From NCBI GenBank assembly GCA_004022145.1, contig RCNU01000001.1: DNA of 64,000 nucleotides. The stretch is one strand, 5' to 3'. Made by a program: the position numbers and the translations under genes. The stretch comes from Paecilomyces variotii (Eukaryota). The notes under the pieces are model-generated. The model was given only the letters and a program-made list of their open reading frames with translations. It was not told the origin of the DNA and made no database searches. Positions 26,759 to 59,344 of this stretch are shown in pieces (position 1 is the stretch's first letter; each line of letters opens with the position of its first letter).

Positions 26759-28185
26759 TCAATACGTACCGCTGGTCAAATTCGCCGGCAACTTAACATT
26801 GTCCCAGACATCGGCCAACCAGTCCAGCGTGACTTGGGCCAACTGGGCTTCGGCACCGAGCTGACAGTGTTCGCCAGCACCAAGATCCGTGCGGAAGAGG
26901 TTGAAGGCACCTCTACTTCCCAGCCACTTGAACATTTCCTCGGGCTGGTTCGGTGCAGTGCTATCATCTTCGCCTTTTCCAATGAAAGCAGGGAATTTGA
27001 TATTGGCGAGGACAGTTTCATTAGCGGCGTACGCGGGCAAACGCCGCCACCAGTCGGAAGGACTGTCTGTGTTGAAAGTGAACAACGATTGGGCGAGGAT
27101 CCAACGCAACTGAGTTGGCATAGAGGTGTTGTGTATCGTGGAAATGAGGGCCTCGTCGAACTCGGCATAATGGCCAGTGTTGTAGAGGTCCAATAGCGCA
27201 GGGTCGAACTGGCTTTCGAAAACTGAATACATGTCACTCAAGCCGTCGATAGATAGCACCGCAGACAGACGAGGCTCGTGGGATGCAGCGAGTGGAGCAA
27301 GTTGGCCGCCGAAGGAAACGCCCGTCAGCGCAACCCGGTTCATGTCGACGTCGCTGCGAGTGGCTAGGTAGTCTACGACAGGCGTGACAACGTTCCACCA
27401 GTCTGGGATGAAGCCGAGATTCTGCTCGCGGAGAACGGTTGGCTGGCCGGGCCCTTCGTAGGTAATGATGTTCCAACCGCGGGCGAGGATCTCAACGCCC
27501 GTCTCGTGGAATAAGTCCTCCTGTGTACCATCGTATCCAGTTCCGACGATGATTGTCGGCAGTCGCTTATTGCTTGACTGTCCTTTGAAGAACCTGACAG
27601 GTACAGAGAAATGACCGTTCGGGACGTTGGGACTAGAGGCCGAGAGATTGGCCTTGATGGCAGGCTGAGGAAGCAGGGCTGCAGCTTTGTCGAAGTCCGC
27701 AACAGAGAGAGCTCCCATCTCATTGATTCGTGGATCACTCGCATTCGCATGCAGGAAGAACGGAGCATAGCGGTAGTAAGTGGATGAGCGAAAGTAAGCT
27801 GATCGAGCTGAGGCTGGGAAGCGCGAGGCGTTGATAGCGATGGCCTTAGCATGAATGGAGTCACCCAAGAACAGGAATTCTTTATACCAGCTCTCAAAGT
27901 CACCGGGGACGATTTGGCTTGCCGCTCGCAAGACCTCGCCTATCTGAGCACCCTGATTATTGCTGAGCGACAGGACGCTCTCCAAGACGAAAGAGAACTC
28001 GGTGTTGTTGCTGAGAGGGAACATGGCGGACGAGTCCTCTGATACCTGAGCAAGCTAAAGAGTATTGTAAGTATCAATGACAATTTCCAGGGGCAAAAAA
28101 AGAGAAGAAAATTGACTGGTTAAGTACTTACTACAGGTAGGATCAACGGTGCGCTCAGTAGAGCCAAAGTATTGATGACACGCAT
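26759..28185 (-). CDS. Secreted alpha/beta hydrolase (2,6-dihydropseudooxynicotine hydrolase-like family), short signal-peptide exon plus long exon
   Basis: MRVINTLALLSAPLILP signal-like exon; GYDG, YEGPGQ, nucleophile motif GVSFGG and GAGEHCQ. Confidence 0.88.
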
Positions 28186-31040
28186 AGTGGTTGTTGGAAC
28201 TCGACGAGGACCAAGGTTGGAATTGCTGTAATTTCTCCGATTCTCACAATTGATGAATCAAGTAGACCAGCCGGAGAAGTAGGGTCCTGCTGGCTTATAC
28301 AACGTTCTTGTACTGGTTGCCGTAGCTTAGCATTGTCATTCTATATATGGCTCCGCCTCTCCAGGAAAGGCTTCAAGGTTGAAGTTTTGCTGTGCTGTAA
28401 GTAGAGTTGACATCTTACATGTGTCTGAACTAAAATAACGCGGCTCGCATGGCTTTCCTAAGAAAGTAAGTACGTGATCAGAATAAGAGAAAACGGGGCC
28501 TGAAGACGATGTGGATCAAATAAATGTAAAGAAGTCCAGCTCGATCTGGTTACTTGATTACTGTAGGGCTAGCGGTGCACTCCAAATAAAGACGACTGTA
28601 CTAGCCATCTTCAGCAATTTCGTCGGTATAAACCAAGCACTTCGTTGGTAGCACGCAATGCTAGGCCTTCTGCCGTAATTTAGGCCGTTTCTGTATTCTC
28701 ACCATACAAGCTTTGATTGTGGCTTGGAGCGCAGATGAAGAGTCTGTTGTCAGTAGCTTCGGCAAGTACCACTGGGAGCCTTGCATGAGACGTGGCTCTC
28801 TCATCGTTTGAAATAGGCGGGGGAAGTATATCTACTGGGGAATTCGGTAAAGTCAACTGGTCCATCATTCTCCGTCTAAGGCATCCTACATACAGTCAGG
28901 TCAATGCATACCCCAGCCCTAGCTTTCCTCTGTAGACCATCGTCGGGTAGTGGAAGCATTTGACCAGAATGGCAAGGACTTCGTACGCTAAAGCACGAGA
29001 GGGCTCAGACAACCCACAGTGGAACGTGGCTTGGCTTTAGAGCCAAGATGATCCTCGTCGTAAAGGGAGGATATAAGCAACACAAGCTTTGGGGGCCAAA
29101 ACTAGTGTTAGAATAGTCCTAAAGTGGAGGCTAATGAGATGTATCTAGCGGCAGAGCGCCTTATCCTAGAGACCCTAGTACCCTATAGACCGTTGGTATC
29201 TGTGAATCAACTAGTCGCGTTAGTTTTGCCCGTTCGTCATTCAATATGCCATATTATTATCATCGCTCACCGTGTCCTGATCAATCAGACTTCGAACTCT
29301 ACTTCCCATACGTCCTGCGCGAACTTCTTCAACTTATGAATGGTAAAAGTGATATCTCTTTCAACGCCAGACGGTAGTCGAAGAAATAGATGGTCGGATT
29401 TAATCACCAGAGGATCTGGGTTGGTATTTTGCACAGCTCTGCCATTCTGGGATAGTACATTTCGATATACTCTCTCAGTACCGTGCCATTGGCAAATTGT
29501 TATCTCCTTTCTTCCATTTTAGCCATTTCTTCCAGTTCAATTTTCTATATGCACCCTGGGCGATGGTCGCTTCAGTCTCTTTCTCTACGGTCAGTGCCAT
29601 CGCCGTGCTCGTCGGGTTGTCTTTGGAAGTTGTGACCGTAGGGTTGCCTTGAAAAGTTGTTACCCTGACGTTGATATGAGAGTTGGTATGGCGTAGGTCA
29701 ACGCGCTTTAAGGTCGGCCTGCTGGAACTTACAATAATGGTTGTCCGGCGGTCGCTGGGTGTAGATAATCCAACCGTGCCGACCCAGAGATGGCGTAATG
29801 GCTGGCGGCTCGGGCGAATCTTGACCAGACGTTCCTATACTATATGATCGCGTGTTAGCCATGAGAAAGCGTCAACAATCGAAGAGAACTTGCCCTGGAG
29901 AGCACCTTCGACGTGTCTTCGGGGTTCGCCATTCGTGGCTTATTATGGTAGTCCTGCAGGACGTGATGAAGACAGTAGAAGCTCCAGCGAGTCCCGAAGA
30001 GGGCCGCTTCGGATTGTAGGTCTCATTTGAATTTGGCGGTTTAAGTATGAATTAGACACGTTTTTAATCTCTAGGTTGATGGACATCTGCGTTTATATCA
30101 TATGCCTGTTCGCAAACTTCTAGGTGCTCCGCTCCTGCTTTTTTTAAACAATGAGTGACTAGCAGACCATCGACGCGGAAAAAAAATGAGACTTACTATC
30201 TTGCGGACGTGTTGGTATTTACCCATAAACCCTTTCTTACTGAACTAGCCCTTTGAAATGGTGTGTGCCTTGATGAGGAGCTAGTTCCATAATGGGTTCC
30301 TGAAGCGCTCCATGCATTGTTCGATGTCTGGCATGTTGATTGAGAGCAATTGTAATAGCAGACTTAACATCACCAGTAGATTCTGTCATTCACCAATTGA
30401 CATCTGATTCCAGTTTACGTTGTACTTCTGAATAGCCAACTTCCACGACTAGACTCGGCCACGGATTGGTTCCATAGATTGGTAGGCTTTATGGACTTCG
30501 ATTCTGGCCTCAGATATATAAGAAACTTCTAATCAGTGGTATAACCACATGCCAGTTATAGACAGGCCATTGAAGAATTATAATTTTGCTTGGGCATAGC
30601 GGTAACCGGGGCACGCAAAGTTTCTAGGAGCATAGAATAAAGAAGAGAAAAGAAGGAGGGCAGAGGGAAAAGAGGGGTTAGAAGGGAATAAAGTGTCCTT
30701 CTGCAGTGTGAATTTGAAGACAGATGAATGGGCCAGACGTCACTGTACAGATGCGGAGAGACGGGATAACTAGACCATATGTTGACTATGAAACCTATGG
30801 ATCGTTATCACTTCAAATCCTGTATGTTTGAAGTGCTGACATTTTGAAGGGGCCACTTTCCTTAGAGGCTGGTAGGATGCTCAAGAACGTAGAGTGTGCT
30901 ATGGAAACGAGCCTAGCTTTTGCTTGACTGATCAAATAAAACGATAGTTAATGCCATTATCAAATCGACATGTCCTCGTAACATCGCATAGTCTCATATC
31001 AAGCCCCCCTCTTTATTGCTAAATAGCATAGAATCACCCC

Positions 31041-31835
31041 CTAATCCACTCTCTTCTTAGCCTTCAATCTATCCGTCCCATGAAACCAATCCAACAACCC
31101 AATAGTCCCATAATTCAAATTAAACTTCTCATGATGCAAATCATGCGTCCTCGCAAGGCTGTAGAAGAAATCGTATCCACTATGCACCGTCGCAGTCTCA
31201 AAAAGCTCATATGCGAGGAATATCCAGAAGGTAAGGATATGGCTTCCTAGTAGCTGTGGCGGCAGTGAGATTGGGAGTACGTTTGCCACGAGATGTTCGA
31301 AGGGATGCGCGTACTGCGCTGCAAGGGCAATAGGTGCTGTGAAGCGATGATGTTGCTTGTGGATGGGTCCGTAAAGCTTTGGATTATGAAAGATACGATG
31401 AACGTAGTAGAACATGATTTCGCGCATGAGGAGACAGCCAGTCAGATCCACTGCGATCTCGGAGAATGGGGGGAACGATGATTCAACGCGATAAGATGAT
31501 GGATTTAGTCTGGTATGGCTGGCGATATAAAGTTGGCCGATATGGAATGCTGCAGACATTATCTGATTCCGTGCCACTACCCTCGCACACTGTAATATAT
31601 CTCGCTTCGAAGGTTGTCGCGGGATCGGTTGTAGTTTATGACGGTGCGAGAATGACGGGGCCCAGGCATCCAGGGACAGGTAGATGGAGCATAAGACCCA
31701 GAAGAACAGGATTTGGACGATAAGTGTTCCAACAAACTCGATTGTTTGAGGAGAACACGACTCTGTCGTTTGCCTCCACGCCCGTTGCACCCTGTCGATT
31801 ATCTCAGCGGTCTTTTCAGATGCGAATATATCCAT
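31041..31835 (-). CDS. Fatty acid hydroxylase / sterol desaturase superfamily protein (C-4 methylsterol oxidase-like)
   Basis: His boxes FYYVHRIFH, IHKQHH, YAHPFEH, HSGYDF, HDLHH and NYG..GLLDW.HGT. Confidence 0.9.
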   Translation of the reverse strand: MDIFASEKTAEIIDRVQRAWRQTTESCSPQTIEFVGTLIVQILFFWVLCSIYLSLDAWAPSFSHRHKLQPIPRQPSKRDILQCARVVARNQIMSAAFHIGQLYIASHTRLNPSSYRVESSFPPFSEIAVDLTGCLLMREIMFYYVHRIFHNPKLYGPIHKQHHRFTAPIALAAQYAHPFEHLVANVLPISLPPQLLGSHILTFWIFLAYELFETATVHSGYDFFYSLARTHDLHHEKFNLNYGTIGLLDWFHGTDRLKAKKRVD

Positions 31836-32373
31836 CTCCTCGTCTATAATCGCTGCCAGTTAACCAGGTTCGGTTTTCAATCCTGCCGGCCAGATGGTGA
31901 AGAAGTTTTGCGATGCAGTATATAGATAGAGCAACTATTGTCACAACTCTAGCTTTTGGTTTTGAGGGAAAGTCTCAGAGTCTTCAAACCGAAGTGTGAA
32001 CCTCGGTTCGACTCGAGGCTCGACCGTCCAATGCTCTAGAGCATGAAGAGCATTGTCCAGTAAATGCACACAGAATCCGGGGAAATATCCCCTCATTGGC
32101 CTGGAAAAGATGACTAGAACCAAGCCATCTGCATAGCGCCGATCAACCACCAGAGTGCGGGGGAAACGCTCCCTGCACCGCCGAGGCTCAACTTTGCGCA
32201 ACAATATCTACTGGTCCATGTGCCATCATAATTGTAGCATTACGTTAGACGACTAATCAAGAAGAGTCCAAGTTCAAGAAAAGAAACGATCTTGGTATTA
32301 TTATAGATACTAAGGAGCTTTGCAAGGCTATTTCAAAAGCTCCAGGCCCTTTTCATCGGAGAAACACCAATGA

Positions 32374-33979
32374 TTATGCGTGAATGTACTGTTGCACTCG
32401 GGGGTACAAATGGACCATTCGATCATAGAGGTCAGGGTGGTCGCGCATCATAACCTGTGGATCCCATCCCATTGCGACGAAGATGGTGTCCACGCCGCTC
32501 CCAATTGGCGTCAGCAAGATCTGGCAGATCTGCAAGCCGATAACGAAGGAGAAAGCCATAATCACTGCCGTGAAGTTCCCACCACTGTTGTATGCAGGGT
32601 GGGTGAATTGCAGGTACAGGTAGGAGAACAACGCACAGAGGTAGGCAACGAAGACGGAGCCCATGGTCAGCACAGGGCCGATGAGGCAGTCCTGAACAAG
32701 AGCGTCCATTCCACGGTCCTTCATCATCGTCCAGGTGTCCTTCGCGGATGGTATATAGGCCTTTCCGTATAAAGCGATGTGGCAGAAGGCATAACGATTG
32801 AAGAAGGTCACAAGCCAGTCCAGGAACCCGATGAAACAACTGAGGATCCAGGCGAAGATGCTCCCGACAATGTTTCCGTCCTGGGCTTCCTGTTGCTGGG
32901 CCACGGAACACGCCTGACGGAGCATATGAATGAAGGCAATAATCAGACTTCCGAAACTGATGCTACCGAAAGAATAGGTTGTCGCCCGCTTGAAGGCACC
33001 GCGAGTAGCGCCTCTGGGCAGACCGCCAGGTGCCCGACTGTAGTAATACCACGAGCCATAGACACCAGCAATCGTTGTATGAACTGTGTTCTTGAGCCAC
33101 TCGCTGAACCAGTACATGGCGAACGTAATATAAACTATCAGACCAATCACCTTGGCTCTGCTGCAGCCACCACTGGAACAGGCTGGATTATCCCCATTGC
33201 TGGATGGTTCAAACGACACATAGATGGCGACTAGCGTCACAGAGAACCAAGCAGAGAACGCGACGGCCACGATGCTACCGACAAGGCTCACGAAAAAGAC
33301 GTGTCCGGTGCTCCGAGCGACGTCGATGGAAGTTTGCAGCATCAGAGCGCTGAATGGAATGCGGGGAATCCAGCTGACGAAGCATATGATGGCGAAGACG
33401 CCGAAAATCAGGAAGACGATACCGGCGCCCCATTGGTGTCGCACGAGATAGTAAATAGCAGTTCCAATGGCAAAGACGATGTTGAGAATGCCTGTGACCC
33501 AGATAAAAAGTTTCGTGAAGTATCGAGCACCCAGGAAGTAGGCCCAGGAAAAGGCTAAGGCGATACAGAGGACGAAGACAAACAAGACCAGTGTGTTGGT
33601 ATCCAGCGAGAAGGTATTCGATGAGTCGTAGATACCGTCGCCATTGAAGCCTTTGTACTTGGCATACCTGTGGATCGTGTAACCAGACACTGCAACAAAC
33701 CCCAGGAAGCTTGCGATGAACTGTTCATAATATCTATTAGAAAAGCTCTGGTCGCATATGTCGAAAGACACCAACCAAGAGTCCTGCCCATATATCATTG
33801 AATTTTGGCTTCTCGATCTTGAACACTTCTTCGTACGATGGAGGAGGCGCGCCTGCTGTGTACTGAGGGGGGTATTCCTCTTTCTTCGAATCTGGAGCTG
33901 CATACTCAGGTTGCGGCGGGGGCTGAGCTTGAGGTTGCTCATACCCCCCGTTGTAATAACCAGCTGCTTCCCCGCTCAT
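32374..33979 (-). CDS. pns1: Pns1 / choline transporter-like family membrane protein, 2 exons
   Basis: FKIEKPKFNDIWAG, many TM segments, RATTYSFGSISFGSL and FNRYAFCHIALYGKAY; intron at about 33724-33776. Confidence 0.92.
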
Positions 33980-35564
33980 AGTGACCGCCCAACAGTGTAG
34001 TCGAGGCCGTCGATCGAGTAAGAATATGAAGAGGGAAGAGAAAATGAAGATGAGGTTTTCCGCAGACTGAAGTCATTTTAGGAGAAAGAATGCTGGCATG
34101 GAAGCCACGCTGCCAAGCCACGGCCCTCTTTCTTACTTGTCCGCATGCAGCGCTCAAATCTGGGAAGAACATGTGGGCTTGGTTGCACATCATAGCTGAA
34201 GGCTAGAAAGCAACTGAGAAGGTCGATCAGTGATATGGCTTTTGACAGTCCTTGGTTCTCTTAGGGGTGGCTTGCATCGCCATGGCGCTTGACGTCAGAA
34301 GCGAGATCCTAGCTTGTACTCTATCCGGTGCTAGGAATGATACATCCCAACAACAATCCGCTACTCTTCAGAGCTATTCCCTCTAGCGCCATCTCGATTA
34401 CCGCATCGGTTCAGCATTTAATTAACATGCTTCTTTAGGTTTTTGATATCCGTACCTCCATACCCAATGGAACCCTTCCAAGTTCCCACGTATTCGGTGC
34501 CACAGCGCTATGCCGCTTGCCGAAGTAGATCCAGAGATCTGGAGTTACACAACATAGACCCATCAATTATTATGGGTTTGGTTTCCTTTATTTTATGCAG
34601 TGGACAGCAGGCGACAAATTGTTTTCACGGTGGATCGCCTCATGATTCTCACCCGCGCGTGTCCCGAAAAAGTGTCAAATGTACAGTACTTGACAGTTAC
34701 TGCGTACTCTGGGCTTAAAGGGTGGAAATCCGTGGTGGGATGAACTATGAGAATCCAAAGTTCCGAGGATCCCACGTTCCTGAAAGTCAATGTGAGCCTA
34801 ACAGGACTAGTTATATAAGGTTTCTTGTCCCCGTCTCTTTTATAGCCGTAACTACTTTTTTTTTTTTCAAGAGTTGCGAGAGCCACTATCAAAATATGCT
34901 ATCTGTTCTACAAAAGGTGACGGGCAGCTAATGACGATACTCTCGACCAGATAGTGAATGATCTCTCATATCACCTTCATTTCCGCTGCGGGGTATCATT
35001 CAAACGTCTAAGCTATTGATCTTCTATTTAAAAGAAAGTACTTGATAGGATTCAGCTGTCTTTCACAATGCATATGAAATAACTAGCACGATTTATCTCG
35101 ATTACTTTTTTTAATTTCTATAGTAACAATTTCACTCTTCCCTTGAATTCAGATTATTCCGCTACCTACACGATTGGTTTCCCCATCTCCTATCTAACCA
35201 AGAGGCTCTGCTTATCGCTTCAGTAGAGTGAGTCTACGACAAATACGGCAGAACTTGAACACAAGCTTCCTAGGTGCATGAGACCCTAGAAAAGACTTCG
35301 TCTGGTGCTATCGATGTATCTTCTTCGCTTGACTGAGGAGAGAATATTGTTTCTGCAGTCGGCAAGAGCAATATGTGCTCCAACTCATAACAAAGAACCA
35401 GGCTTGAAGCCCAGCAACACTTTCAATACGCGTCTATCTGACCCAGCGCTTTTAAATCACTACACCTCACATTGAAATTCACATCTCTCTTTCTCTCTCT
35501 CTTCCACCACACAGTATCAACGTCATAAAATAACTCTCCTGCGTTTTCTCAGAGACGATAGAAA

Positions 35565-36827
35565 ATGTCGCTTCAAGATTTGCCAACAGAGATACTCCTC
35601 ATGTGCCTCCAGAAACTTGACAGGCCTGACTACCGGTATCGCCGCTTTTATGCTTGGGCTAATATTCGCCTTACGTGCAGACGATTCGCCAGACTGGTGA
35701 TCCCGCTTTTATTCAGCAAAATCACAGTTCAGTTTTCGAGCACTTGTTTACAGCGGCTGGAGAGACTATCCCAGAACCCGAGTATTGCAGGATCCATTAC
35801 TCATGTCACGATAGCTCTCCCGTGTTACGATCCTGCAATGCTAGAGGACTTCTCACTTTTTGTCCGTTCCCGTGCCTACGCCCTAGAACTCTCTATGATA
35901 GTAATATGGCATGATTCTACGACTGGAAAAATATTCGAAGAGATAGAAGAAGAACGCAGTCGGATTTTGTCGACATGGGACGCAGTCGGAGATGGAGACT
36001 ACGATATCGATCACATTGACCAGAACTTGAAGTTATTGCAGCAGAGTCATCAGAACTACCAGAAGTTGTACTGTGACCAGCAGGAGCGTAAGCCGGTCAT
36101 GCTGCTTTCTGAGATCCTCAAACGGCTGAACAACCTTCAACAAATCAGCATAGACGACTCTGTTCAAGAAGAAGGACACGTCGATGAGAAAGGACACCTG
36201 GTTCTGGCTTGGGAATCGGGTTACATACCAGCGTCTATGTGGTCCGGATCGGAATTTGGTCCAAATATTGCAACTCCTTGGAAGCTGATCGCCGACATCT
36301 TTGATACTATGGAAATGTTGTCTGTGCATCCCGCAAAGTTTTGCTTGGATATATATGAGGCTATCTTTGATCCCAGGGCATTCCAGATGTCCCCAGAATG
36401 TCTTGTTCGCATTGGTGATATTCTGAAAGATACGAAGTCGATTCGTGTCCATATCGAGCAAGCATATAAGGACAGGGACGACATCGAGGACGACATTGAA
36501 TCTGTGGGACTCTTAACAAACGCTCTGTGTAATGTGGCCTCACTGCAGGAGCTTGAACTGTCTTTTTTGTGCATTGATGGTTACCGCCCTGCAGCTTTTG
36601 TCCTGCCACTAGGGAAAACAACGTGGGTACATCTGAGGACTCTCAAACTACGGCGCATTGCTTTCACACGCGAGAAATTCCGAATGTTACTGCAGCAATG
36701 TAATAAAGATGTGCTGGAGGATGTGCACCTGCACGATGTGGAGTCGCCCTCTATGTCCCGGCAGGATGTTAGCGAGGACCTGAAGAGCTTCACCAAGGTG
36801 AGGAAGATCATATGGCGCGACGCCTAA
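35565..36827 (+). CDS. F-box-like domain protein with C-terminal LRR-like segment, intronless
   Basis: 420-aa ORF starting LQDLPTEILLMC..IRLTCRRFARL..PLLF; C-terminal LQELELSF / LRTLKLRRI / LEDVHLHDV repeats. Confidence 0.75.
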   Translation: MSLQDLPTEILLMCLQKLDRPDYRYRRFYAWANIRLTCRRFARLVIPLLFSKITVQFSSTCLQRLERLSQNPSIAGSITHVTIALPCYDPAMLEDFSLFVRSRAYALELSMIVIWHDSTTGKIFEEIEEERSRILSTWDAVGDGDYDIDHIDQNLKLLQQSHQNYQKLYCDQQERKPVMLLSEILKRLNNLQQISIDDSVQEEGHVDEKGHLVLAWESGYIPASMWSGSEFGPNIATPWKLIADIFDTMEMLSVHPAKFCLDIYEAIFDPRAFQMSPECLVRIGDILKDTKSIRVHIEQAYKDRDDIEDDIESVGLLTNALCNVASLQELELSFLCIDGYRPAAFVLPLGKTTWVHLRTLKLRRIAFTREKFRMLLQQCNKDVLEDVHLHDVESPSMSRQDVSEDLKSFTKVRKIIWRDA

Positions 36828-37325
36828 TCGCTGGAATTTTATCAAGCATCTATCCCCGAGGGTGCAGACTCCTCCCGAAAACAGTTCACCTAGGAGATCG
36901 AGAAGCATAATTTTGCGGACCTCATGCTTAATTTCAGCTACTGGTGCTTATTTAGAATACAATTTTTCTTTGGTGGAATTGGAGGGCGGGGGGAATCTAC
37001 TATGACTACTTCATGGTTCTCGTCCCTAACTAGCAATCTGATTCTAATTCGCCACTTGTCAATATTTCCTGTCAGTTTTCTTGTCTAAGAGGTACAGCTG
37101 AATCTCAATCATGTCCAATATTCATTTTTTTCTGAGAATTGTATTTACCAGAATCAATTCTCTCTGTTCTCAGAACATCATTCGATTAGCGCTGTATTTA
37201 GTAATTGCTGCCTGAACGAGATGAGTTTGCCCTTTAAAAACGCCTTGAATGATCACATAAAATACAATCCGCTACTACCATATCAAAATCAATATAGATC
37301 CATTTCATCCACTCCTCATTCAACC

Positions 37326-39219
37326 CTACACCCCAAACGGAGTATACCGCCACAGCTTTCTCTCCACCGCGAGCTCCGATTCATAGCGATATCCAAACGC
37401 ACGTCGAAAAATACTTTCCAAAACAGGATCTCGAAGAGTCCCATACATCGCCTTAGTAAACTCCCAATACTCAGGCATATAACCTGCGCATTCCCAATCG
37501 ATAATACCACTTAACCGTCCACGATCAACGAGAAGGTTAGTAGGATAGAAATCACAATGCGTAAAGCACGAGCGATGGCCCCGCTGAACGTTCTCTTCGC
37601 CGAGAGCTTCGGCTGATGTGCATTTGAGATGGCTTGTTAGATGGTCGTTGAACTCAGATTCGGAGTTGAATGGTCCTCCGGTTCCGTTGGGGATGCGGTG
37701 ATCGAAAACCGGTCCTCCTAGGGCGTTGCAAAATAAGAATTGAGTAGGATTGGGGATTTGTCGTAATTGGGAAATGTAAGATGTGAGGGTGTCTGCGAGG
37801 AGGTCGCGCTCCGCATATGATAATAGATGGGGGACTTCGTGAAGCATCTGTCCACGTAGCCGGGTCACAACTAGATATGTTGTGCCGTTGTACTCGCCGA
37901 CATCGACTACGCGAGGTGCTGGTATAGATGTGTACTGTTCAACTAGCCTGAATGAAACAGGTTCGTTCTGATGAGTACGAACGCACTGTTTCAGAATCAG
38001 GCCAAATGGCAGCCGATGCACGTGCACCGCCATCGTAGGGCCATAGAGCCATCTCCCGATTTTTTGGAGCAGTATATAGCACTGGCGGCGTGCGCGTGAC
38101 GGTATGTAAAGCCAGAAGCGGTGGAAAGTTTGTCGAAGAATGGGAAAGTCAAATGCAAAGAAGTCTAATACGTTTATTAATCAATTCAGAGTAACAGCAT
38201 AAGAAGCTGCTCTACGTACCTCGGGGTGGTTGAGGCCAACCACGAGGGATTTTATCCTCAATGTAAAAGAGGTGTAGTGCTTTGGCGAATCGGCGATGAA
38301 TCCCAAAAAGAAAGAAGTTTGGTATCGGTAGAGTCTCAGCATCGGGTGTGGAGAATTGAAAGCGTCTTGTCTGCTCAAGTGCAGTTCCGTCTCCGAGGAG
38401 AAGACCTAGGATCTCTTCGGGATACATGGTCGCTAGCTTATACTATGTATGAGAATTTTAGCAGAGGTTTTGTGGCTTTTTTGTATGGTATCACTTACCG
38501 TGGCGTCCGGGCTCTGTTCGTCCATCGATTTCGCATCGCCAAGTTGTCGATATGCTACCGTTACAGCTACGTGACCTTCGCGGAAAGCCTTGTGGACGCT
38601 TGGTGTCAGAAGCCAGAGATTTCGCAAGGCATCTTCATCGTTTCCTTCTTGATTGGAAAGTTGAATCCGCAGTTTTTCAACATAGGGCGGTGATATATGC
38701 GCTTCGAGCATCAGGAACAGACGTCCCTATGTACAGTACATTTGTAAGACGTCACAACCTGAAGGGGTTACAAAGCGTAGTTCACCTCTTCCTCTTTTTC
38801 AAGATCATGAAGCAACGAAGGAGGGATCACATATGCGGGCTCTGTGGTAACCATCGAGCTGCTGCGCGGCTCCTTGGTGACGGAGCATCTAGGACCATCT
38901 CTAAGACGAACCAAAGCGGCCAGACGTTTAGGAATTGGGTCAAAAGCGCTTGCTACAACAATTCAGCAAAAGAAAGCAATATCTAGTCAAATTGAAAGAT
39001 TTTTTTACTCCTCGTTGCCAACTTTCTCCAGTCACTTTTGAAGTCACGCAGACTGGCTTCTATATCTTCTCGATTATCTTGGATGATTCTTGAAATCAAA
39101 TACTTTGCAGCAATTTCCGAGTCTACAGCTTCATTGACGAAGCCTTTCAAAAGGAGATGTTCAGTTGGCGAAAGATTCGCTGAAGAGATGATCTCTAGTG
39201 CTTTGTCGGTGGTAGACAT
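37326..39219 (-). CDS. HNH-type nuclease-like domain fused to aminoglycoside phosphotransferase (APH)-like kinase; 5 exons, 555 aa
   Basis: Exons 39219-39009, 38952-38786, 38726-38499, 38442-38220 and 38164-37326 splice in frame (1668 nt); RDGPRCSVT..AYVIP..NLWLLTPSVHKAF..LPIPN..IH; kinase motifs IPAPRV, HCDFYPTNLLV, IIDWE, PEYWE. Confidence 0.82.
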
Positions 39220-41601
39220 TTTGTGTCGATGTTAAGTAGTGGTGTTCGAAAGGCTATGGGGGCTAAGTTGATCTGTTGCAAGTGTCAAGCATCTTGACAG
39301 CTATGTGAAAAAAGATAAAACTGACGCGTTCTATAGATAGATCAGGTATACTGAAATCTTCACATAGAAAGCAATGATTATACAAGAGTGCTAGGGGCCT
39401 GATGCTTCACCGCGGTTTGGCGAGCTCCATGGCGGTCTACGTTGCAGCGGGGAGGAGAACTTCGCCTACTGGTGTAACATAGAGTACGTTGCACTCAGAT
39501 GCAGTCTTCTGCCGGCAATATTCAATAAACCGCACTCAAAAAAGAAGAGTGTATATATACAATCTGTACAGGGAGTAAGATAATTCCGATCGACTAGTTA
39601 CCGATTTGCAGATATTACTTTTTTGTTCTCTATCCCGTTGACTTCGCTCAGCCATGGACTGAGCGGAAGATGGATAGTGCTGACACTTCCTCCAGTGTAG
39701 AGAGTACATCTTCTAGAATCTAAAGTCTCTATCTAGAAGATGACAGTGGGACCATTGATCCCTGAAACGGAGTGGAGTTAAATAATATTTCGGGAAGTCT
39801 CGAGTCTGCCAAGAGTTGGAGTGATCGACGCTTTCACCTCTCCCGTGGGCAATCGAGAGCCTGGTTTAGTTTCTGGCGTCCAGCAAGACTTCTCGGATGC
39901 TGTCTCAACGGACCGTCCAGGATTGAACGAAATTGGCCGAGGGCTGAGCCGGATTTTGTTCGTGTTTCTGAGCAGTGCGGAATACTCATTGGTAGAGCCA
40001 ATTGCAGTGTTGCTGAAAGTCTGAGACACGCGACAAGAGCCAAGAACCAAGAACCAGAGAACCAAGAAAGTCCAGACACGACAAAATCCCGAGAAGTTAT
40101 TTTTAGCCGGCGACCGCCATCGACAGGATTCTACATCCGCAGCGCGGGATTATAATTGTTGCAGTGTGTGGGATAAGGAAATATTACCATATACCATGCC
40201 CCATCGTAATTGTCATGCAGGATCCATCCAGATTCAAGAGGGCTGGGGATGGAGTCATGACAGCTGTTATGATAATACGTCAACATAACTGGGAGCGGTG
40301 CGGGGATCAACTGGGACAGAAGCATTGGATTGCCAGAACAACCTGTTCAGAGGTCGGTTAGTTAGTTGGTTAGATGCAGCTTGCTATAGATGGACATGCA
40401 GATTTTCAGATGCCCATGACGATTGGAGGCTGTCTGCTGCCAGACAGGCATCCTGGCCGATGTATCAAACTCGCATAATTCCAACTGCCACGGTTAGATT
40501 CGAGGTAGTTACTCCAGACTAGAATAGAGTACTAGAATAATCCTCCTGAGGCATCCTGTAGAGTAGCATAGTTAGAAATGAAGAATAGTTAACTAGATAA
40601 TACCATAGATAAATGACAGTGGCAGCAGTCTTGAGTTGATGACGCGTCACTCCGGGCGGGAAAAGGCACAGGCGATGGTGTATCCCGATCGGGCAAAGAC
40701 GTGCCAAGGGCTCCACGGCGGGAACGAACAATAATAAATAACAATGGACGATTGACAACTCAGATGGCGCCGACTTGCCCATCGTTCCCTGTTCCTGGCG
40801 GACAGTGGAGGCTTGACATTCGCCCAGACGGGAATCCAGCAGCCCGTTTGGGAGACGAGCCCTTGCACGCCACCGAGAAAGGGACTCTCCGACTGTCTCC
40901 TCTCCCACAGGCCAACCCGTCCGTGATCTGCTGGGCCGATCGGGCTGATCCTATTTTGAACAGTAACAATAATACGCCGTTTTTACGCCCCGGTGGAGGT
41001 GCACGGGAAGTACCTCCGCCCGCGCTGTCTGGCGGCATTGGTACATACCTCCGCTCAGGACTCATCTGCCATCCCGGGTATGGTACTGTACCATACTGTT
41101 GTTGCAACATCCCCTCTCCAGACACTGGACAATAATAATGATCGATGGTCCACCGTCAGGAGAGAAGAAATCAAAGCGTTGCGGAGGCCAAGAGGGATGT
41201 GGCTTGAGTCGTGACAGTCCACCACGGCCCCTTCCTGGAATCAATCATGCTGTGTGTCCCTCCTCTTTAATCCCATCCTCCCTCGCTCATTCCTCCCTGC
41301 CTCGATTTCTCTCCTCCTTCATACCAACCCCCTCCCCCTCCTCTGACAGGAATCAAAACCGTCATTCGTTCCGGTTCTTTTTCAATCTCCGACCCCTTTG
41401 GATTCAATTCGCTCTTCTTTGTCCCAGCCATATCTTTTTTTTTTCTCTTTTCGCTTTTCTGTCGTTTTTTGCCAGCAAATCCACATCGTCTGTCGCTCAT
41501 ATAATAACAGCCACTTCGTAACTTTCTTGACGACTCGTCTGCCGTTCTTTCCGGAGCCGTCCCGATTCCATCTTTGATCTCCTGTCTCGACATCCATCAT
41601 C

Positions 41602-43076
41602 ATGAAGGCTACTGTTGCTTCGATGGCGGCCGCCGTCGCCGTGGGCGCCTCGGCCGTCATGGCCCTGCCCCAGCAGATCCAGGCCCGTGACAGTGTCACC
41701 CCGATCACCGTCAAAGGAAACGCTTTCTTCCAGGGTGACAACCGCTTCTACATCCGTGGTGTCGACTACCAGCCCGGTGGCTCCTCCAAGCTGGAGGACC
41801 CCATCGCGGAGCCGACCACTTGCAAGCGCGATATCGCCAAGTTCCAAGAGCTGGGCGTGAACACCGTCCGTGTCTACTCCGTCGACAACTCCAAGAGCCA
41901 CGATGAGTGTATGCAGGCGTTGGCTGATGCTGGCATCTACCTCGTCCTCGATGTCAACACTCCCAAGTACTCGCTCAACCGGGCCGACCCCGAGACCTCG
42001 TACAACGCCGTCTATCTGCAGAATGTCTTTGCGACCGTCGAGGAATTCGCCCAGTACCCCAACACTCTCGCTTTCTTCTCCGGTAACGAGGTCATCAACG
42101 ATGGACCTTCCTCCTCGGCCGCTCCCTATGTCAAGGCCGTCACCCGTGATATCCGCCAGTACCTCCGTGAGAGACACTTGCGTGATGTTCCTGTTGGTTA
42201 CTCTGCTGTATGTGGTGTCACGAAAGAAAAAATCTCGATCAAACCCCCCAAGACGACGCTAACATGTGAGATCCATAGGCCGATATCGACACCAACCGTC
42301 TTCAGATGGCTGAGTACATGAACTGCGGTACCGACGATGAGCGCAGCAGCTTCTTCGCCTTCAACGACTACTCGTGGTGTGACCCCTCCTCTTTCACTCA
42401 GTCTGGTTGGTCTCAGAAGGTCCAGACGTTCTCCCACTACGGCCTGCCTCTCTTCCTCTCGGAATACGGTTGCAACACCAACAAGCGTGAGTTCCAGGAA
42501 GTCGGTTCGCTGTACTCGACCCAGATGACAGCCGTCTACTCTGGTGGTCTCGTGTACGAGTACTCCAACGAGGGTAGCAACTATGGTCTGGTCACCATCG
42601 ACGGTAACAGCGTCACTGAGCGTCCTGACTTCACTGCCCTGCAGTCTGCTTTCAAGAAGACCCCCAACCCCCAGGGTGACGGTGGCTACAACAAGACCGG
42701 TGGTGCCAACCCTTGCCCTGCCAAACAGGCCCCCGCCTGGAACGTCGACAGCACTGACGCTCTTCCTGCTATCCCCGATGCCGCCAAGAAGTACATGACC
42801 CAGGGTGCCGGTAAGGGTGTTGGTTTCAGCGGTTCCGGCAGCCAGAACGCCGGCGGAAGTGGTGCCACTTCCACCGGCACTGCCGCCCCGGGCTCTGGCT
42901 CTGGCGGCTCTTACTCCACTGGTACCTCTTCCGGCAGCAGCTCCAGCGGTTCTTCCTCCAGCTCCAAGGGTGCCGCCGCTGGTCTCCGCGCTCCGGAGAT
43001 GACTCTGGCGCCCATTGTCTGCGGTCTTGTTGTGACCATTTCCACCTTCTTTGGTGCCTCCATGATCTTGATCTAG
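41602..43076 (+). CDS. gel1: GH72 beta-1,3-glucanosyltransferase, GPI-anchored, Gel1-type, 2 exons
   Basis: Signal peptide, RFYIRGVDYQPGG, FFSGNEV, FNDYSWC, FLSEYGCN, SGGLVYEY, Ser/Gly-rich tail and hydrophobic C-terminus; no CBM43 Cys domain. Confidence 0.93.
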
Positions 43077-44600
43077 ACTGGAAATAGTCTGGAAACCAAG
43101 TGTTTCATCTTTTTTCCTTCCCACGGACACAATTCGGGACTCTTTTTCTCCATTTGGGATTTCATAGCATTAGAAGGTTAGGTTTGGATTTGTATGGTAG
43201 ATTAACCCACACAGTCGGCTCTGAAGCGCAGGTCGACAATTGGAAGTCTTCATGTGAATCCGCTGTACAGTTGGATCCGGAGGTTGGCTGGCTAGCCAGG
43301 TTTTATTCCCCTCGGTTATCTGTCATTTTCTTTTTTCTGTCACTCGTCTTCGTGTAGAGTAGTAATTCGAACTTGAATCTTCATCACGATTTCGATGCGT
43401 GTAATGCTGCACTGTAGAAGTAGTCATCGACAACAAGTCAAGTCACGACGGCGTTGCATCGCTGGAGCAGTGTTCCTTGAACCGGTTATCTCTCGTGAGC
43501 CGGTCAATCGTCTGGTACGCAGCGTGGTGCGCCAGGTTCGAGAATGCCGGAGTAGATAGTCGAACAGATCGTGGACAGCTGAGTCGCCATCGAAGACTGA
43601 CACCCTCGTTCTTTCGCGATGGTTTAAATCTAGAGGCCTCGTCAGCGCCTAACCTTTCAATATCAAACAAACGACATGCTTCATACCAGGTAGATCAGAT
43701 AGTTGGGTATAAGCTGGAGTACATAGGGTCAGATATCATCCAGCAGTCAAGTCGAGTCAATGGCCCGTATCTAGACAGGATGACTCGATCATCTCATCGG
43801 TAGGTCACTATAGACGCCATCGTGGATGTACACCCGTCTCCATCAAGATCAGGAGGATATCGGATGAAAAACAAAACAATAACATTCCACGAAAAGGAGG
43901 GATCGAACAGAAAGAAAAGAAAAGGTGGTAAAATAGCGCATAATAATAATTAACACTCACACCTTAAAACAGAACAAGCTTTTTTTTTCATTTTCATTTT
44001 CATTTTCCCCCTGCGTAATCCTCTAATGGGGTATATTTGGGTGTGTATACGTAGTATGCTTACGTAGAGTTAGCCACCTAAACCTTCTGTGGGTTAGTTG
44101 ATTAGTTAGTTAGTGAGTGCTAGACCATGAGGTCTCGAGATGGAATTGGATGGTTGGGGTTTATTTTCGGGGATTTATTTCGGGAATGAGGGAGGGATAA
44201 GGGGTCTTTTTTCTGAAATTTATTATCGAGAGTCAAGGAGATAAGTAGGAGGGGAGGGGACTTTGTTACTTCTTATGGGATATAAGGGCGGTGGGCTTTT
44301 GAAGGATTAAGTATTAAGTATTGTTTAGGTGGGGGGTGCGTGCTTCGTCCATAACCGCACAAGCTATTTTCTGTGTCGTATGAATTTGCCGGAATGGGCA
44401 TTAGGCGCGGTATTGATTTAGTTTGACGTTTCGGATTTTCTTTTATTTCTTTTTTTTCCCTTTTCTGTTGGCATTGATTTATTGTAGTATTTACGCTATT
44501 GTCAATTCCAGTTGTGGAATCGGATTTCTAACCTAGAGTTGCAGCAACCCGAGCCAGTAAGTAAAGGGAGCTAAATTGCCCTCATTGCTCTCCCAGAGCA

Positions 44601-45616
44601 TCACCACGGAAGAACACCGCCTGTATACGTATTCGGGCCTCCCTTCGGGTCCCATCCAGGAACGTGAATATCGAGAAACTTCCCAGTGTCTTCTTTACTG
44701 ACTTCCTTGCTGATTCGGATAACCTCCCTCGCACCAACTTCGACTGGCAGATCGGCTGCGCTTCCACCAAGGTCTGTATTGAGATACTGCGCCAAATATT
44801 AACTGTTTGAACAGAACAGAACAGCCGCTCTCATGGCAAGGTATGGAAAGGGAGGTACTCACACCGGGGCTTACTGCAACGAACGTGAACCCCTCCTTAG
44901 CGAACGTTAGTCCATACTCGGCCGTCATCGAGTTCAGAGCCGCCTTGGTGATTTTATATGACGGCGTCAGCATCTTCTGGAACTGCGGAGCCATGGTAAT
45001 TGATCCGACGGATGAGGAACTTGATCAGCTCATGTTAGCTTCGGTGTGTATCCCATGATCAAGATAGAAGTACTTTTCAACTTACATATTGAGCACTTTC
45101 TTCTGCTGGCCCTTGCGCAGCAATGGGAGGAATTGCCTCGTCACGCGATGAACTCCGGTAACGTTGGTGTTGAATGTGTCATTTAGATCCTCCCTAAGAT
45201 TAGATTATTAGATTCACTGATATCATGTACAGAGGTTTCCTATCCTTTTATTTTTGTCATGAAATAAATAGGACTCGACTCGACTCGAAAAAAACTCTCG
45301 CATACATATTTTCCACCCCTCCCTGTATCCAAGGCATGATTCCAGCATTATTAATGAGCACATCAATGCCTTCACCGTTCAATTCCCGCTGCACAGAACG
45401 CGCCGCCTCTTCGACACTCTTGTCGTCGCTCACGTCTAGCTGGACGAATTTCACCCGTGAGGGATACTTCTCTCTGAGCTCTTTCAGTTGAGTGGAATTA
45501 TCCTTGCGCGCAGCTGCGAAGATGGTTGCGACTTCGGACTCTGGCTGCGTGGCGAGGAGGGATACGATGGTATATCCTAATCCGCGAGATGCGCCGGTGA
45601 TTAGATATGTGGACAT
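44601..45616 (-). CDS. Short-chain dehydrogenase/reductase (C-factor-like), multi-exon
   Basis: TGASRGLG, LINNAG, NISSSVGS, YKITK (YxxxK), SPGYLNTDLG. Confidence 0.9.
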
Positions 45617-48600
45617 TTTTGAATCTTGCTTGTTGGATCGATGTGGGATATTATGATGTATAGAGAAGGATTGGTTGTAGTTTGTTCGTAGGAACTTCCA
45701 GTATGTTGAAACGAAATCATCTGAGATGAAAAGAAATACCCCGCAATATTTATATCGCTTGTTAGACCCACTGTTTCTCGCAGATTGCTGATAAAGAAGT
45801 TGACTGTTCGATAACAATAATAAGTTAACTGGAGTTTGATTATCAAGACTAACCAATTTATGCATACTCTATGCAATAATACAAGACAAGAACTACATAA
45901 CAACAAGTACCTCCACTCTTCTCTCCTCACTTTAACAAGTTTCAGCCAACGCCAACGGTCACCAAGCATAGCTTCTTTACCATCTAACCAATTAAGTCTA
46001 CTCGTCATAGCTCTATTTGACTTAGAGTTCGGCTCGTCTTCTTGGCTTTACCGACACTAATGTAGAACAATCAATTGTGCTTTTTCGTGGCTTACAAATC
46101 TAGAGTAATTACGCCTATGTCCGAACTTGCTAAAGCCCGATTTATCTACTCTAGTTGGGAATGAAGGAGATTACTGGGGTGATTGGGGTAATTGATTCTT
46201 CCGACTAGTTAGAGCCTTTTGCGTATTTAATATTGTAGGAGTTAAGTAGGGCATCGGAGATAATGGAAGCGCCCTGCCAAGACTGCGCCGTTGTTCTTGG
46301 CGGAGGGGTTTGTTTTTGCCCGATTCCTGTTTATGAATTCAGAACGAGTGACTAGATTAATAATAAATAAATCAGTATTGAATGAATTCATGTGTAGTTA
46401 GTTAGTTGCAGTGTCCAGATTTGTTTCGCATTTTCTATCTTCAATCAACGTGACTCGAGATCGACAGTGGGGTTTGATATACCCTGTGTTAAGCAGCTAC
46501 GATAAATAGATATGATGACTTCTGGAATAACGCGAGTATTTATCTGGTTTAATTCTTAGACGCAAGGAAAGCGGAAGTATGTAACAACCCTGCTGCCATT
46601 TGCTAGACTCCTTGATTTACAACTAGCTTCAAAGTATAATTCGATATGGCGCAAGAGCTTTCGTGCCAGACCCCGTCACTCAATGCCGACACGCGTTGAA
46701 TGAGAGCAACCTGCATGGGTAATCTGGTAGGGCTGGCAAATAGCGAGCGATACACGCTTGATTTGCGGTCTCTTTAAGGTTAGGTTCTCATTGTGAGACG
46801 TAAGATAAGATTCCATCAATTTAGTCAGGAATCTGGAGTATCTGACTACCTACCTGCGTCCCCGGCCTCTGATGTATAGGCCTGATTTCATTGGCTTCTG
46901 AGCTTTGAGCTATTTAGCGGCCCAGTTGTACATAGTAGTACATAGTATTTGGACATGAAATAGACTATACCTTTTCTGTTCTGTCACCAAGACTGCTAGG
47001 TTCATGTTTCGTTCGTTCATACTTTGAATATAGCATCTAGGGATGGCTGCTATATCGGGTAAGCTCGATGAGAGATCACTCCTTATGCAGGACAGAGTCG
47101 CAGTGCTAGGATCCAACCAGCACGTCCAAGCGTGGCAGAAACGCTTACCAGGACATCTCTTCTGATTTATGGTTAACATCGGACTCAATAATAGATCAGG
47201 CGAAGCCTGGTTCTTTTAGTCTCTCCAGCTGGTTCACCCTTTTCCAGAAAGTGTCCACCAATTTTGAACCAGCTGGTCTGCGCGGTAGGTTCGGGGAGAA
47301 GACAGGTACATCGAATAAGTCAACAGCCGTATAAACTTAGTAAATATGTCGTAGTCAGCTGTCATGGATCTCATATCGAATCGTGGATAACAGATTACAA
47401 AGTCTGTCGCGTTGTCAAGAGTGCAATTGGACGGCTCTATTTCTTTAAGCGCACCAAAGCTGAGATGGGATGCGATACGCCGCAACGCCAGGGTGCACTT
47501 TTGACGCCGTTCCACGGACGACGCTAGAAACCCTTAGCATGAAAAGGGGTTTAGTCAAAAATAGGCACTTTCATACCAACTGTTATCCGCTCCAATCTCG
47601 GTAATTATTATTTGAATACGGGCTGGTGGAGAATTGGCCAAGGTAATACCTTGTCTAAACAGAAACGATAATGAGGTTGCATGCTTGCTAGACGCGTCTG
47701 CCGCATCTGTGATATTCACGGCTTAACAAGCTGCTAAATTTTTGTTTTCGATGCGCAGACTGCATTTAATACAATAAATCCAGGATTCAGGCTTGCGTGG
47801 TAGATAACTACCTCTACTTGTTATCATGGACTGTGGCTTATCGTGTAATAAATGCCGACATTCCACCTTGTTATTGCTTTTACTACGGTCGCGGCAATGA
47901 GGAGCCATCGAGCTGCTCATGCATGCCAGCGTGTTAAAGCTCTCCTTTTGGCGTTGAAGTTACACCTTGAAAGCGTAGAGAGAGAGCTGAAGAGGAAGAA
48001 GAAAGGCCACGATAAAAATTACAGTAGCAGACTAGTTTGTGATATGACGACTGGAATAGGGCAACCGCGATCGAGCTACACCGCCCCATAGTGAACCGAG
48101 CGCAGCTGCAGTACAATCAAATCTCGACCTCACTTTTTCCCACGTCGCGGCTTTGTTCTTCCTGCTCCTTGTTCTTCCTGGTTCTGGATGATCAAGTCTC
48201 ATTATTCTTACCGCTGATCGGTCGCCCTGCCCAGGCTCCAGGGTGATGCTGCGCGCCATGACGCAGATCGCGGTTTCAAGGTGTGGCTGAGAAATCTATG
48301 AGGGATTTGTAGAAACCACAACTTGGGAGAAGCCACGGGAATATGGTGCGGTCCCCGTCGGTCAGCATTGCTTCGCAGCCAAAAATGCTTTAGGCACTTG
48401 AGCCATTATTTTGACTGACTTTCAACAGCTAGAGATGCGGTGATGGGTCGAGCGTGCCAAAAGGGGCTATGCGCCGGGGCAAAATCGCGCACTCTTCCCA
48501 TTCTCGAGGTGTGCGATGCGGGCAGGTAATTTTACATCCGTCGAAGCTACCAGTAACGTGCAAAATGCTAATTATCCAGCGATTCGAGAGACCCCTAGCG

Positions 48601-57755: not shown

Positions 57756-58078
57756 GACTGAAGCGGGACTCCAACTGCCTCACTGAGCCTTGATGTTGTC
57801 CTTTTTCGCGACGGGTGAGATAAACGACCTAGTGAGGTGATAGCTGGAAGGATGAGGTCCGTCTCTGATGCCTCCCATCGGCTTCGGGAGGAATAAGTAA
57901 AGGCAGACTGCGCGCCTCTCGTTGTTCCCGTGAACACGGCGTGCCGAGGCTAGGAAAGCTGCCGTGGGTCGAGTTCAGCTTTCCGCAGGCTCCGCTCGCG
58001 TGGCTGCGGATGCTTCTACCAATCTGCGTGCTTCTAAATCAGGGGGCAAAATCTATCTCGAAAAGTTCAACCACCAAT

Positions 58079-59344
58079 ATGCGCACCTCACGGATCGCAA
58101 AGGACACTACAAAAGTGCTACAGGCACTGTCTCCGCCTGGGAAAAGACGCACTCGCAGTGCCCTTACCTCTAATGCCTTGCAGAGCTTTGCATTTTCTGA
58201 AAACTCCGCTGGGGATATCAGCTCTGATCTTCCGCCAAAACAAGAAGCTCTAATCAGTGACGATGATGGCTCCTCGCTCTCCTCTGCAAATACGGATGAT
58301 ATCGAAGACCTATTGGCCCCTGCAGCCAAACGACGGAAGACCAGAGCAGCTTCTACCAGGTCTCCTCGCAAGGTTATCGTAAAGCAGGAGACTCCAAAGG
58401 CCAGCTCAAATGGCGCCAAAGCACGTCGCATGCCAGCGCGTAAAGTGACTGCCACAGATGGTTCGGTTGTAGTCCAGCCGCCTTCCAACTGGGAGACTAT
58501 CTATTCAATAGTCAAGAAAATGAGAGAAGAAAATCCCACGGCCCCGGTTGATACCATGGGTTGCGCTGAGCTGTACTGGCGAGGTTCATCTCCTCGAGAT
58601 AGGAGATTCCAGACTCTCGTCGCTCTCATGCTGTCTTCCCAGACTAAAGACACTGTCACTGCTGTGGCCATGCAGCGGCTGCACACCGAGCTGGGAGAAC
58701 AGAAAACCGCTCCTGTAGCGTCCCCAATCATCAAGGCAGAGGATGATGAAGGTAAGGACCAGGTAGCGGCTAAGGATAGCACACTGAATCTCGAGAATAT
58801 TCTTGCCGTCTCTCCAGAGCGCCTTAACGAACTCATTCGTACCGTTGGCTTTCACAACAATAAGACCAAATATATCAAGGCCGCTGCTATTATCCTTCGC
58901 GATGAGTATAACTCAGATATCCCAGACACGGCTGAAAAGCTCATGAAGCTCCCGGGAGTTGGTCCCAAGATGGCTTATCTCTGCATGAGTGCGGCGTGGG
59001 GCAAGCACGAAGGGATCGGAGTCGATGTCCATGTCCATCGTATCACGAATCTGTGGGGGTGGCAGAAGAGCAAGAACCCTGAAGAGACTCGCAAGGCGTT
59101 AGAATCCTGGCTACCAAAGGATAAGTGGCATGAGATCAACAAGCTTCTTGTTGGCTTGGGACAGACAGTCTGCTTGCCTGTGGGAAGAAGGTGTGGGGAG
59201 TGCGAGGTTGCTGGAAAAGGCCTTTGCAAGAGCGAAATAAAAGGATTGATTCCAAAAGGGAATCGTGGCATCATTGTGGGAAAGAAAGAGACCCTGGATG
59301 AGAAATCCTTTGCTATTGGGGAGGTTAAGGTGGAAAAGCAGTGA
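58079..59344 (+). CDS. nth1: Endonuclease III homologue (DNA glycosylase/AP lyase), intronless
   Basis: [28 protein letters not shown], HhH motif [20 protein letters not shown] and the [4Fe-4S] motif C-x6-C-x2-C-x6-C; first ATG at 58079. Confidence 0.95.

Follow-up and report, generated by a model that had tools for sequence, protein, structure and literature searches.

A five-exon gene of Paecilomyces variotii joins an HNH_2-like module, with tyrosine at the usual general-base histidine, to an APH-type kinase

The stretch of DNA analysed here, referred to below as the window, comprises 64,000 nt of Paecilomyces variotii (assembly GCA_004022145.1, contig RCNU01000001.1). Its subject is one gene, at 37326..39219, whose product carries an HNH_2-like half at the N-terminus and an APH-type kinase at the C-terminus. 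The coding sequence is 1668 nt long with the stop and specifies 555 residues, its exons being joined by four GT..AG introns of 55-59 nt. The parts of the gene, in the order in which they are transcribed and with residues numbered as in the protein, are as follows.

37326..39219, minus strand: the whole coding region in five exons, from the ATG at 39219 to the stop TAG at 37328-37326; 555 residues.
39009..39219, minus strand: exon 1, residues 1-70 and the first base of codon 71, with most of the N-terminal helical bundle (helices at residues 3-13, 18-29, 34-47 and 53-72 in the predicted model).
38953..39008, minus strand: intron 1, 56 nt, GTAAAA..TAG.
38786..38952, minus strand: exon 2, with the RDG..C motif (R88, D89, C93) and strand beta-1, which ends at Y111 (codon 38831-38833, minus strand), the position of the HNH general-base histidine by secondary structure and alignment column.
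38727..38785, minus strand: intron 2, 59 nt, GTGAAC..TAG.
38499..38726, minus strand: exon 3, with a helical insertion, then N162, strand beta-2 and the helix with H171, which supply the remainder of the beta-beta-alpha-metal core, and G177 and H178; Pfam HNH_2 scores 21.6 bits here, over profile positions 15-65 of 66.
38443..38498, minus strand: intron 3, 56 nt, GTAAGT..TAG.
38220..38442, minus strand: exon 4, with beta-strands 203-207 and 227-230, the LPIPN motif and the long helix 245-269, which carries H251.
38165..38219, minus strand: intron 4, 55 nt, GTACGT..TAG, connecting the N-terminal module to the kinase.
37326..38164, minus strand: exon 5, with linker helices, a complete APH-type kinase (key residues K335, E344, H479, D481, N486 and D499-W-E; Pfam APH 63.1 bits) and the stop.

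An earlier, sequence-only reading of this DNA had assembled the exons from fragments, joining them in phase through four introns, and had called the gene hidden. The assembly proved exact, its product being identical at 555 of 555 residues to the public protein P0060 (RWQ99227.1 / XP_028488872.1) of Paecilomyces variotii (Byssochlamys spectabilis), which bears the name 'kinase-like domain-containing protein'. The gene is therefore hidden from a plain track of open reading frames, but not from public annotation, which holds the same model. The motifs that had been quoted are all in place: RDGPRCSVT (R88-T96), AYVIP (Y111), NLWLL (N162), VHKAF (H171), LPIPN..IH (H251), HCDFYPTN (H479, D481, N486) and IDWE (D499).

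Several observations bear on the model itself. An in-frame stop lies 4 codons upstream of the ATG, and 10 annotated homologues align without indels at all four junctions. The first in-frame methionine of exon 5 is residue 322, and residues 277-321, which are conserved, have no start codon of their own; this argues that exon 5 is spliced to the upstream exons. Reading through an unspliced intron 4 leads to a stop in frame 3 codons on. Short matches in profile searches often end at exon boundaries (query ranges 1-72, 72-135, 135-200 and 202-277), which suggests that the relatives probably share the intron positions. In the contigs of other strains, none of the 12 indel rows listed (of 248) falls inside an exon of the gene; a 1-nt deletion at 39000 in a contig of run X4 lies within intron 1, as non-coding sequence would allow, and a 4-nt deletion at 39233 is upstream of the ATG. 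An RNA-labelled run, X15, gave an unspliced, genome-like contig over 34729-42565 with a joint at none of the four introns and is uninformative on splicing. On this sequence evidence the five-exon gene is real, intact, nuclear and already annotated.

With regard to the sequencing runs, X15 is a metatranscriptome, and its long unspliced contigs of the locus indicate that it contains DNA of a close relative. Run X4 is labelled as a different organism ('organism B'), and its pieces differ by 0.2-4.2% from the window over 27000-46999, which is as close as runs of the same organism. A 5.9-kb 'replacement' joint in run X8 was discarded; it had 22-nt anchors, and the run gave three pieces of 22-47 nt. 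Plus-strand open reading frames that overlap the gene, at 38181-38693, 38462-38986 and 37089-37514, are regarded as frames open by chance on the strand opposite a conserved gene.

Used as the sole query, the kinase exon retrieved 56 proteins of 488-717 residues, most of about 555, whose full-length identity to the window protein is 30-94%. They come from Eurotiales, Onygenales, Leotiomycetes, Dothideomycetes and Sordariomycetes, and the family was seen in Pezizomycotina only. The family alignment holds 57 proteins, and the residue counts given below refer to it. Nine proteins of 153-489 residues with the N-terminal half were also found, several of them front halves of split annotations that adjoin a kinase model. 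A profile of the N-terminal module alone, run against 1.84 billion proteins, matched 247 representatives at E ≤ 0.001; among the 150 of these listed, the long ones have about 520-600 residues and the short ones are exon-sized fragments. When 35 further proteins among these representatives, each of at least 243 residues, were scanned, 25 contained APH, 10 were without a Pfam match and none had any other partner domain. In these searches the N-terminal module pairs exclusively with APH, no other Pfam partner having been found. The AlphaFold model of the full-length protein is a single compact body, with a predicted local distance difference test score (pLDDT) of 88.5 and a predicted template modelling score (pTM) of 0.83.

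In a family tree built by a quick method the distribution is patchy: Eurotiales fall into three or more clades, between which other classes are placed, and some species have two copies. In view of the long branches of Microsporum, Phialemonium and the Fusarium clade, we draw from it neither transfer nor rooting. The pattern fits an accessory family and is unspecific to conflict genes. In Rasamsonia emersonii and several Botrytis, family members are annotated as adjacent N-module and kinase models (pairs P0106/P0350, P0107/P0279, P0111/P0281 and P0109/P0301), which could reflect split annotation, pseudogenes or genuine fission.

In the kinase half, Pfam APH (PF01636) scores 60.9 bits for P0060 with a cut-off of 23.2, and it is matched in 57/57 family members. 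H479 and N486 are invariant, and the beta-3 Lys K335, the helix-C Glu E344, D481, the Mg-binding D499, W500 and E501 are each at least 90% conserved. The model has the bilobal APH fold with its helical substrate lobe, and predicted residues 297-555 superpose on residues 11-292 of APH(2'')-IVa with a Z of 18.1 and a root-mean-square deviation (rmsd) of 3.4 Å over 232 aligned residues. The likeness to the solved enzymes APH(2'')-IVa, APH(2'')-Ia, APH(3')-Ia and APH(4)-Ia extends over the whole fold, the C-terminal helical lobe included (Z 15.4-18.1, 219-238 residues aligned; Foldseek E about 4e-8), and they have in common with the window kinase the HxDxxxxN catalytic loop and the Mg-binding Asp. 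They differ in that identity is just 13-18%, that they are without the 275-residue N-terminal module, and that the window gene is eukaryotic and bears introns. An aminoglycoside resistance gene was considered and rejected, as NCBIfam APH_3p (NF033068) scores 34.7 bits against an equivalog cut-off of 205. We take this half to be a complete, eukaryotic-like APH-type kinase of the small-molecule kind which, judged by its residues and predicted fold, is probably active; it would most likely transfer phosphate from ATP or GTP to a substrate hydroxyl. TCAD9 ('ternary complex associated domain 9') gives weak Pfam matches in 11/57 members, with a best E of 0.00096, and this match probably overlaps the kinase domain.

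For the N-terminal half, the AlphaFold model of residues 1-279 (pLDDT 90.3, pTM 0.87) shows four helices (3-72), a strand at 108-111, a helical insertion, a second strand at 163-166 and a helix at 168-175, which is the beta-beta-alpha-metal topology, with further strands and the long helix 245-269 after the core. Against 48,161 chains, VIA-align placed two HNH domains at the top, that of TagI with Z 6.6 and rmsd 4.6 over 114 aligned residues and that of VcaM4I with Z 6.2 and rmsd 3.6 over 116; its third row has Z 2.9, and HNH proteins make up 10 of the best 50 rows, among them McrA, GVE2 HNH, Cas9, IscB and Cap5. Pfam HNH_2 (PF13391) is borderline in the window protein, where exon 3 by itself passes the cut-off of 21 bits and the whole protein does not; it was matched in 17/57 members at E ≤ 0.01 and in 0/35 of the further representatives at E ≤ 0.001. 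In the ESM Atlas, fungal HNH_2 clusters account for 25/30 feature matches of the N-half (score 0.96), with a template modelling (TM) score of 0.67 to a 350-residue HNH_2 cluster. The Pfam, VIA-align and ESM Atlas lines are each moderate, and together they lead to an HNH_2-type His-Me finger. Sequence and model thus support a reading of residues 1-275 as a four-helix bundle followed by an HNH_2-like His-Me finger.

Both the nearest solved folds and the nearest fungal proteins differ from this half. The C-terminal HNH domains of TagI (6ghs) and VcaM4I (6yex) align to model residues 76-261 and 68-260, respectively, at 16% identity. These are bacterial nucleases fused to a reader of modified DNA, whereas the partner in the window protein is a kinase; in addition, the window protein has Tyr for the general-base His and a long helical insertion (about 115-160) between the core strands. 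Stand-alone fungal HNH_2 proteins, among them the 'DUF7881/HNH endonuclease domain-containing' clusters of about 290-400 residues, likewise have a helical N-terminus and then the His-Me finger, but they are without a kinase. Their feature score is 0.94-0.96; one cluster reaches a TM score of 0.67 over residues 1-270, and the DUF7881/HNH cluster one of 0.46. DUF7881 itself had no Pfam match in exon 1 (E ≤ 1) or in the 57 members (E ≤ 0.01). With regard to the CR-HNH Crinkler effectors, in which a header or secretion signal precedes an HNH_2 toxin domain, exon 1 matches no Pfam family at E ≤ 1 and the N-terminus is modelled as a four-helix bundle, no Crinkler sequence having been compared. CR-HNH appears in the table of PMC5714182 as His-Me group 38.

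What has happened to the active site? The general-base His of HNH proteins, part of the consensus motif AHI, sits at the end of strand beta-1, and in its column the window protein has Tyr111, as have all 14 alleles of the species. Over the family, this column reads Tyr in 25 members, Trp in 9, His in 8, Ile in 8 and Phe in 4 (n = 57); it was assigned from the secondary structure together with the AH[VI]xP seen in 8 members. The structural Asn, N162, is kept in 45/57 and the metal-binding His of the core helix, H171, in 51/57. The Asp of what we take to be the usual HNH motif H..FD is replaced by Arg in 43/57 and by Gln in 10/57. The domain calls of the sequence-only reading, namely an intact APH kinase with HxDxxxxN and DWE, an HNH_2-like core, and Tyr in place of the usual His, are therefore confirmed by family profiles, conservation, fold searches and the alignment column, and AlphaFold, which had been proposed as a check on each domain, returned both a kinase and an HNH-type fold.

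Alleles of the species indicate where the protein is under constraint. All 14 strain annotations have 555 residues, and the 14 distinct alleles are 88.5-99.8% identical (mean 93.4%); 108 of the 555 sites vary. Across the 14 alleles, those key residues that were checked are fixed, with the exception of E344 (E or Q), and polymorphic sites make up 5.5% of the columns conserved at ≥0.9 vs 26.8% of those at <0.3 (Mann-Whitney p = 3e-5).

If the kinase is complete, what would be the role of the module before it? With moderate confidence, we favour a two-module enzyme, probably cytosolic, in which an active small-molecule-type kinase carries a non-nucleolytic accessory module derived from HNH. In such an enzyme the N-terminal half would be a His-Me finger that has kept the Asn and the helix His and lost the general-base His, and it would serve as a fixed platform on the kinase, either structural or for binding a substrate or ligand. 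There are precedents at the level of the superfamily, to which we limit the likeness. In the portions of PMC5714182 drawn on here, the His of the His-Me finger is given a catalytic role, and the nuclease-like domain of ENPP/autotaxin and Smad MH1 are inactive His-Me fingers kept for binding: the catalytic His is gone, and the module is retained for structure or for binding substrate or DNA. ENPP also has a catalytic neighbour domain, but there the partner is a phosphodiesterase, whereas that of the window protein is a kinase.

A number of points weigh against this proposal and must be set beside it. As to the fold, VIA-align itself rates Z values of 6.2-6.6 as middling, Foldseek against the PDB gave no usable match for the model of the N-terminal module (best E 0.81), and Pfam HNH_2 reaches 18.1 bits over the whole protein, below its cut-off of 21. 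The module also keeps a conserved polar set (R88 in 56/57, D89 in 52/57, H171 in 51/57 and H251 in 54/57), which might still form a functional metal site whose base has moved, and PacI, in the same portions of PMC5714182, has Tyr in place of His in its His-Me finger, as the window protein has Tyr111. Finally, the mean pairwise difference between alleles, 6.56% at the protein level (a rough figure, since the sets are distinct sequences from 90%-identity clusters), is high for a plain metabolic enzyme.

The alternative that fares best, although we consider it unlikely, is a nucleic-acid-directed kinase or sensor, in which the dead HNH module would bind DNA or RNA and either recruit the kinase or switch it on. 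It would account for the retention of the HNH fold with its Asn and helix His and for the constant pairing of the modules; the nearest folds, TagI and VcaM4I, are nucleases dependent on DNA modification, and Smad MH1, an inactive His-Me finger, still binds DNA according to the part of PMC5714182 cited above. However, the HNH-like segment is not basic, having a net charge of -3, with a family median of -3 and a positive value in 11/57 members. Pfam scans gave no nuclear-localisation or DNA-binding family, and every solved relative of the kinase has small molecules as its substrates.

An active nuclease under control of the kinase, for example one for defence or stress, seems to us improbable. 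It would need another base or nucleophile, for which Tyr111, H251 or D89 might be candidates. In its favour is the conserved polar cluster of R88, D89, H171, H178 and H251. It can also appeal to the 8/57 relatives that keep the canonical His, one of them the Botrytis tulipae protein P0004, and to PacI, which works with Tyr for His in the excerpted text of PMC5714182. Against it stands the variability of position 111, which leaves no single substitute at that site across the family; PADLOC returned no match for the 3 members scanned, and the Arg and Gln found at the presumed H..FD Asp also count against cleavage.

The sequence-only reading had taken a further step, from the architecture to a candidate conflict gene (drive, allorecognition or defence), and this step found no support in what could be tested: the resemblance to Spok is confined to the architecture, and the gene holds a constant, syntenic position. 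In its explicit form, the proposal is either a Spok-like single-protein toxin-antidote system or meiotic driver, with a toxic N-module and a protective kinase, or an allorecognition determinant under balancing selection, and we regard it as very doubtful. The comparison deserves to be made with care. As SPOK3 is described in the excerpts of PMC6660238 available here, it has a coiled coil and a domain of unknown function, a PD-(D/E)XK nuclease on which killing depends (K240), a Cys/His cluster and a kinase on which resistance depends (D667), and it resides in a mobile 'Spok block' at varying positions; the Spok cluster has the form C-x3-C-x13-C-x5-H-x7-H, and the linkers are disordered. The window protein resembles it in being a single chain with a helical N-terminal part, a nuclease-type domain and a C-terminal kinase of the eukaryotic-like, not classical, kind, so that a nuclease-like module followed by such a kinase is common to both. 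Yet Spok has a nuclease of the PD-(D/E)XK kind, with a catalytic Lys, and the window protein an HNH-like fold, a separation made by description with no Spok sequence compared, and the general-base His has been lost. The Spok cysteine cluster is absent from the family (0/57 with a relaxed regular expression), the window protein having one Cys (C305) between residues 94 and 336. In place of a mobile block, the window gene occupies a fixed syntenic place among housekeeping genes.

Presence or absence across strains had been named as a check, and intact 555-residue alleles were found on 23 contigs, with no sign of presence/absence variation, no whole genome having been searched. Locus tags follow the same order in other strains, and in 7 strains the tag of this gene is exactly 3 from that of a fatty-acid hydroxylase gene. 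The neighbours encode GTP cyclohydrolase II, UPRTase, a P450, a choline transporter, an F-box protein, a GH72 glucanosyltransferase, a short-chain dehydrogenase, endonuclease III and phospholipase B. Cargo of a Starship or transposon was considered and set aside, no such family being present in the 24 of the 61 window open reading frames of at least 130 residues that were scanned.

In favour of a conflict gene are the allelic diversity, the patchy tree with two copies in some species, and an adjoining hyperdivergent F-box gene. Calculated in the same rough way, the 6.56% of this gene compares with 1.65-2.79% in three genes 19-28 kb away. A fatty-acid hydroxylase gene 6 kb away is nevertheless equally diverse, at 6.30%, and between-strain nucleotide divergence is 2-7% over the whole 20 kb compared, with the piece that holds the kinase gene at 2.3% in run X5 and 6.0% in run X15. 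All four gametes occur at 903/1770 site pairs; the alleles are therefore a recombining mosaic and not a few deep classes. Accordingly, we see a functional, fast-evolving gene, weakly constrained outside its core, which is not an isolated island of diversity.

Two of the neighbours merit a description of their own. The hydroxylase family open reading frame lies at 31041-31859 on the minus strand and has 41 of 250 sites variable, so that raised protein diversity may span roughly 31-39 kb. The most divergent stretch, at 15-16%, is 35842-37268. It covers the 3' half of the F-box gene, which lies at 35562-36827 on the plus strand, together with the spacer that separates this gene from the 3' end of the kinase gene. 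In the run X5 contig, 36016-36165 differs by 16% and 36377-37163 by 15%, with flanks at 2-5%, while 35842-36016 and 36165-36377 are replaced or unalignable. The window F-box protein has a single cluster-mate at 90%, identical over 329 residues. Should this stretch prove to have two deep haplotype classes, it would match an allorecognition-type locus more closely than the kinase gene. Further along the plus strand, at 57869-61346, P0083 (966 residues, 'Endonuclease III homolog') fuses what other strain annotations give as two genes, an endonuclease III of 421-495 residues and a DUF7730 protein of about 543, and is probably a merged gene model.

One might go one step further and see in this family an HNH-based nuclease-plus-kinase system, that is, a second, independently assembled toxin-antidote or incompatibility system of filamentous fungi. 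In such a system the N-module would be harmful alone, for example when intron 4 is retained and the frame closes at the stop just beyond, and the kinase in cis would neutralise it; balancing selection would then explain both the diversity of 6.6% and the hyperdivergent F-box neighbour. We give this extension little credence.

Last, that annotation has wrongly fused two genes, one for the N-module and one for the kinase, is hardly credible: the halves are indeed annotated separately in Botrytis spp. and Rasamsonia emersonii (BPAE_0018g00020/BPAE_0018g00010; VTN96DRAFT_1281/VTN96DRAFT_1282), but exon 5 has no Met before residue 322 although 277-321 is conserved (P298, R302 and G313 at ≥90%), junction 4 is collinear and free of indels, both halves occur together in the 56 long proteins and in all 14 annotations, and the full-length model folds as one body.

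The gene is thus annotated and both of its domains are of known kinds, while their combination is uncharacterised. Full-text literature searches found no description of a fungal HNH-APH fusion, which the domain-architecture supplements of PMC5714182 might list. If the reading that we favour, of an active kinase on a non-nucleolytic platform, is true, the family would represent an uncharacterised fungal accessory enzyme and a clean case of a His-Me finger that has lost its catalytic His and has a fixed kinase partner. If, on the other hand, the N-module were toxic or DNA-directed, the family would offer a second, structurally unrelated solution to Spok-like drive by one gene, or to a novel immune or incompatibility module of fungi. 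The mould is tractable and many of its strain genomes are public, so these possibilities are testable.

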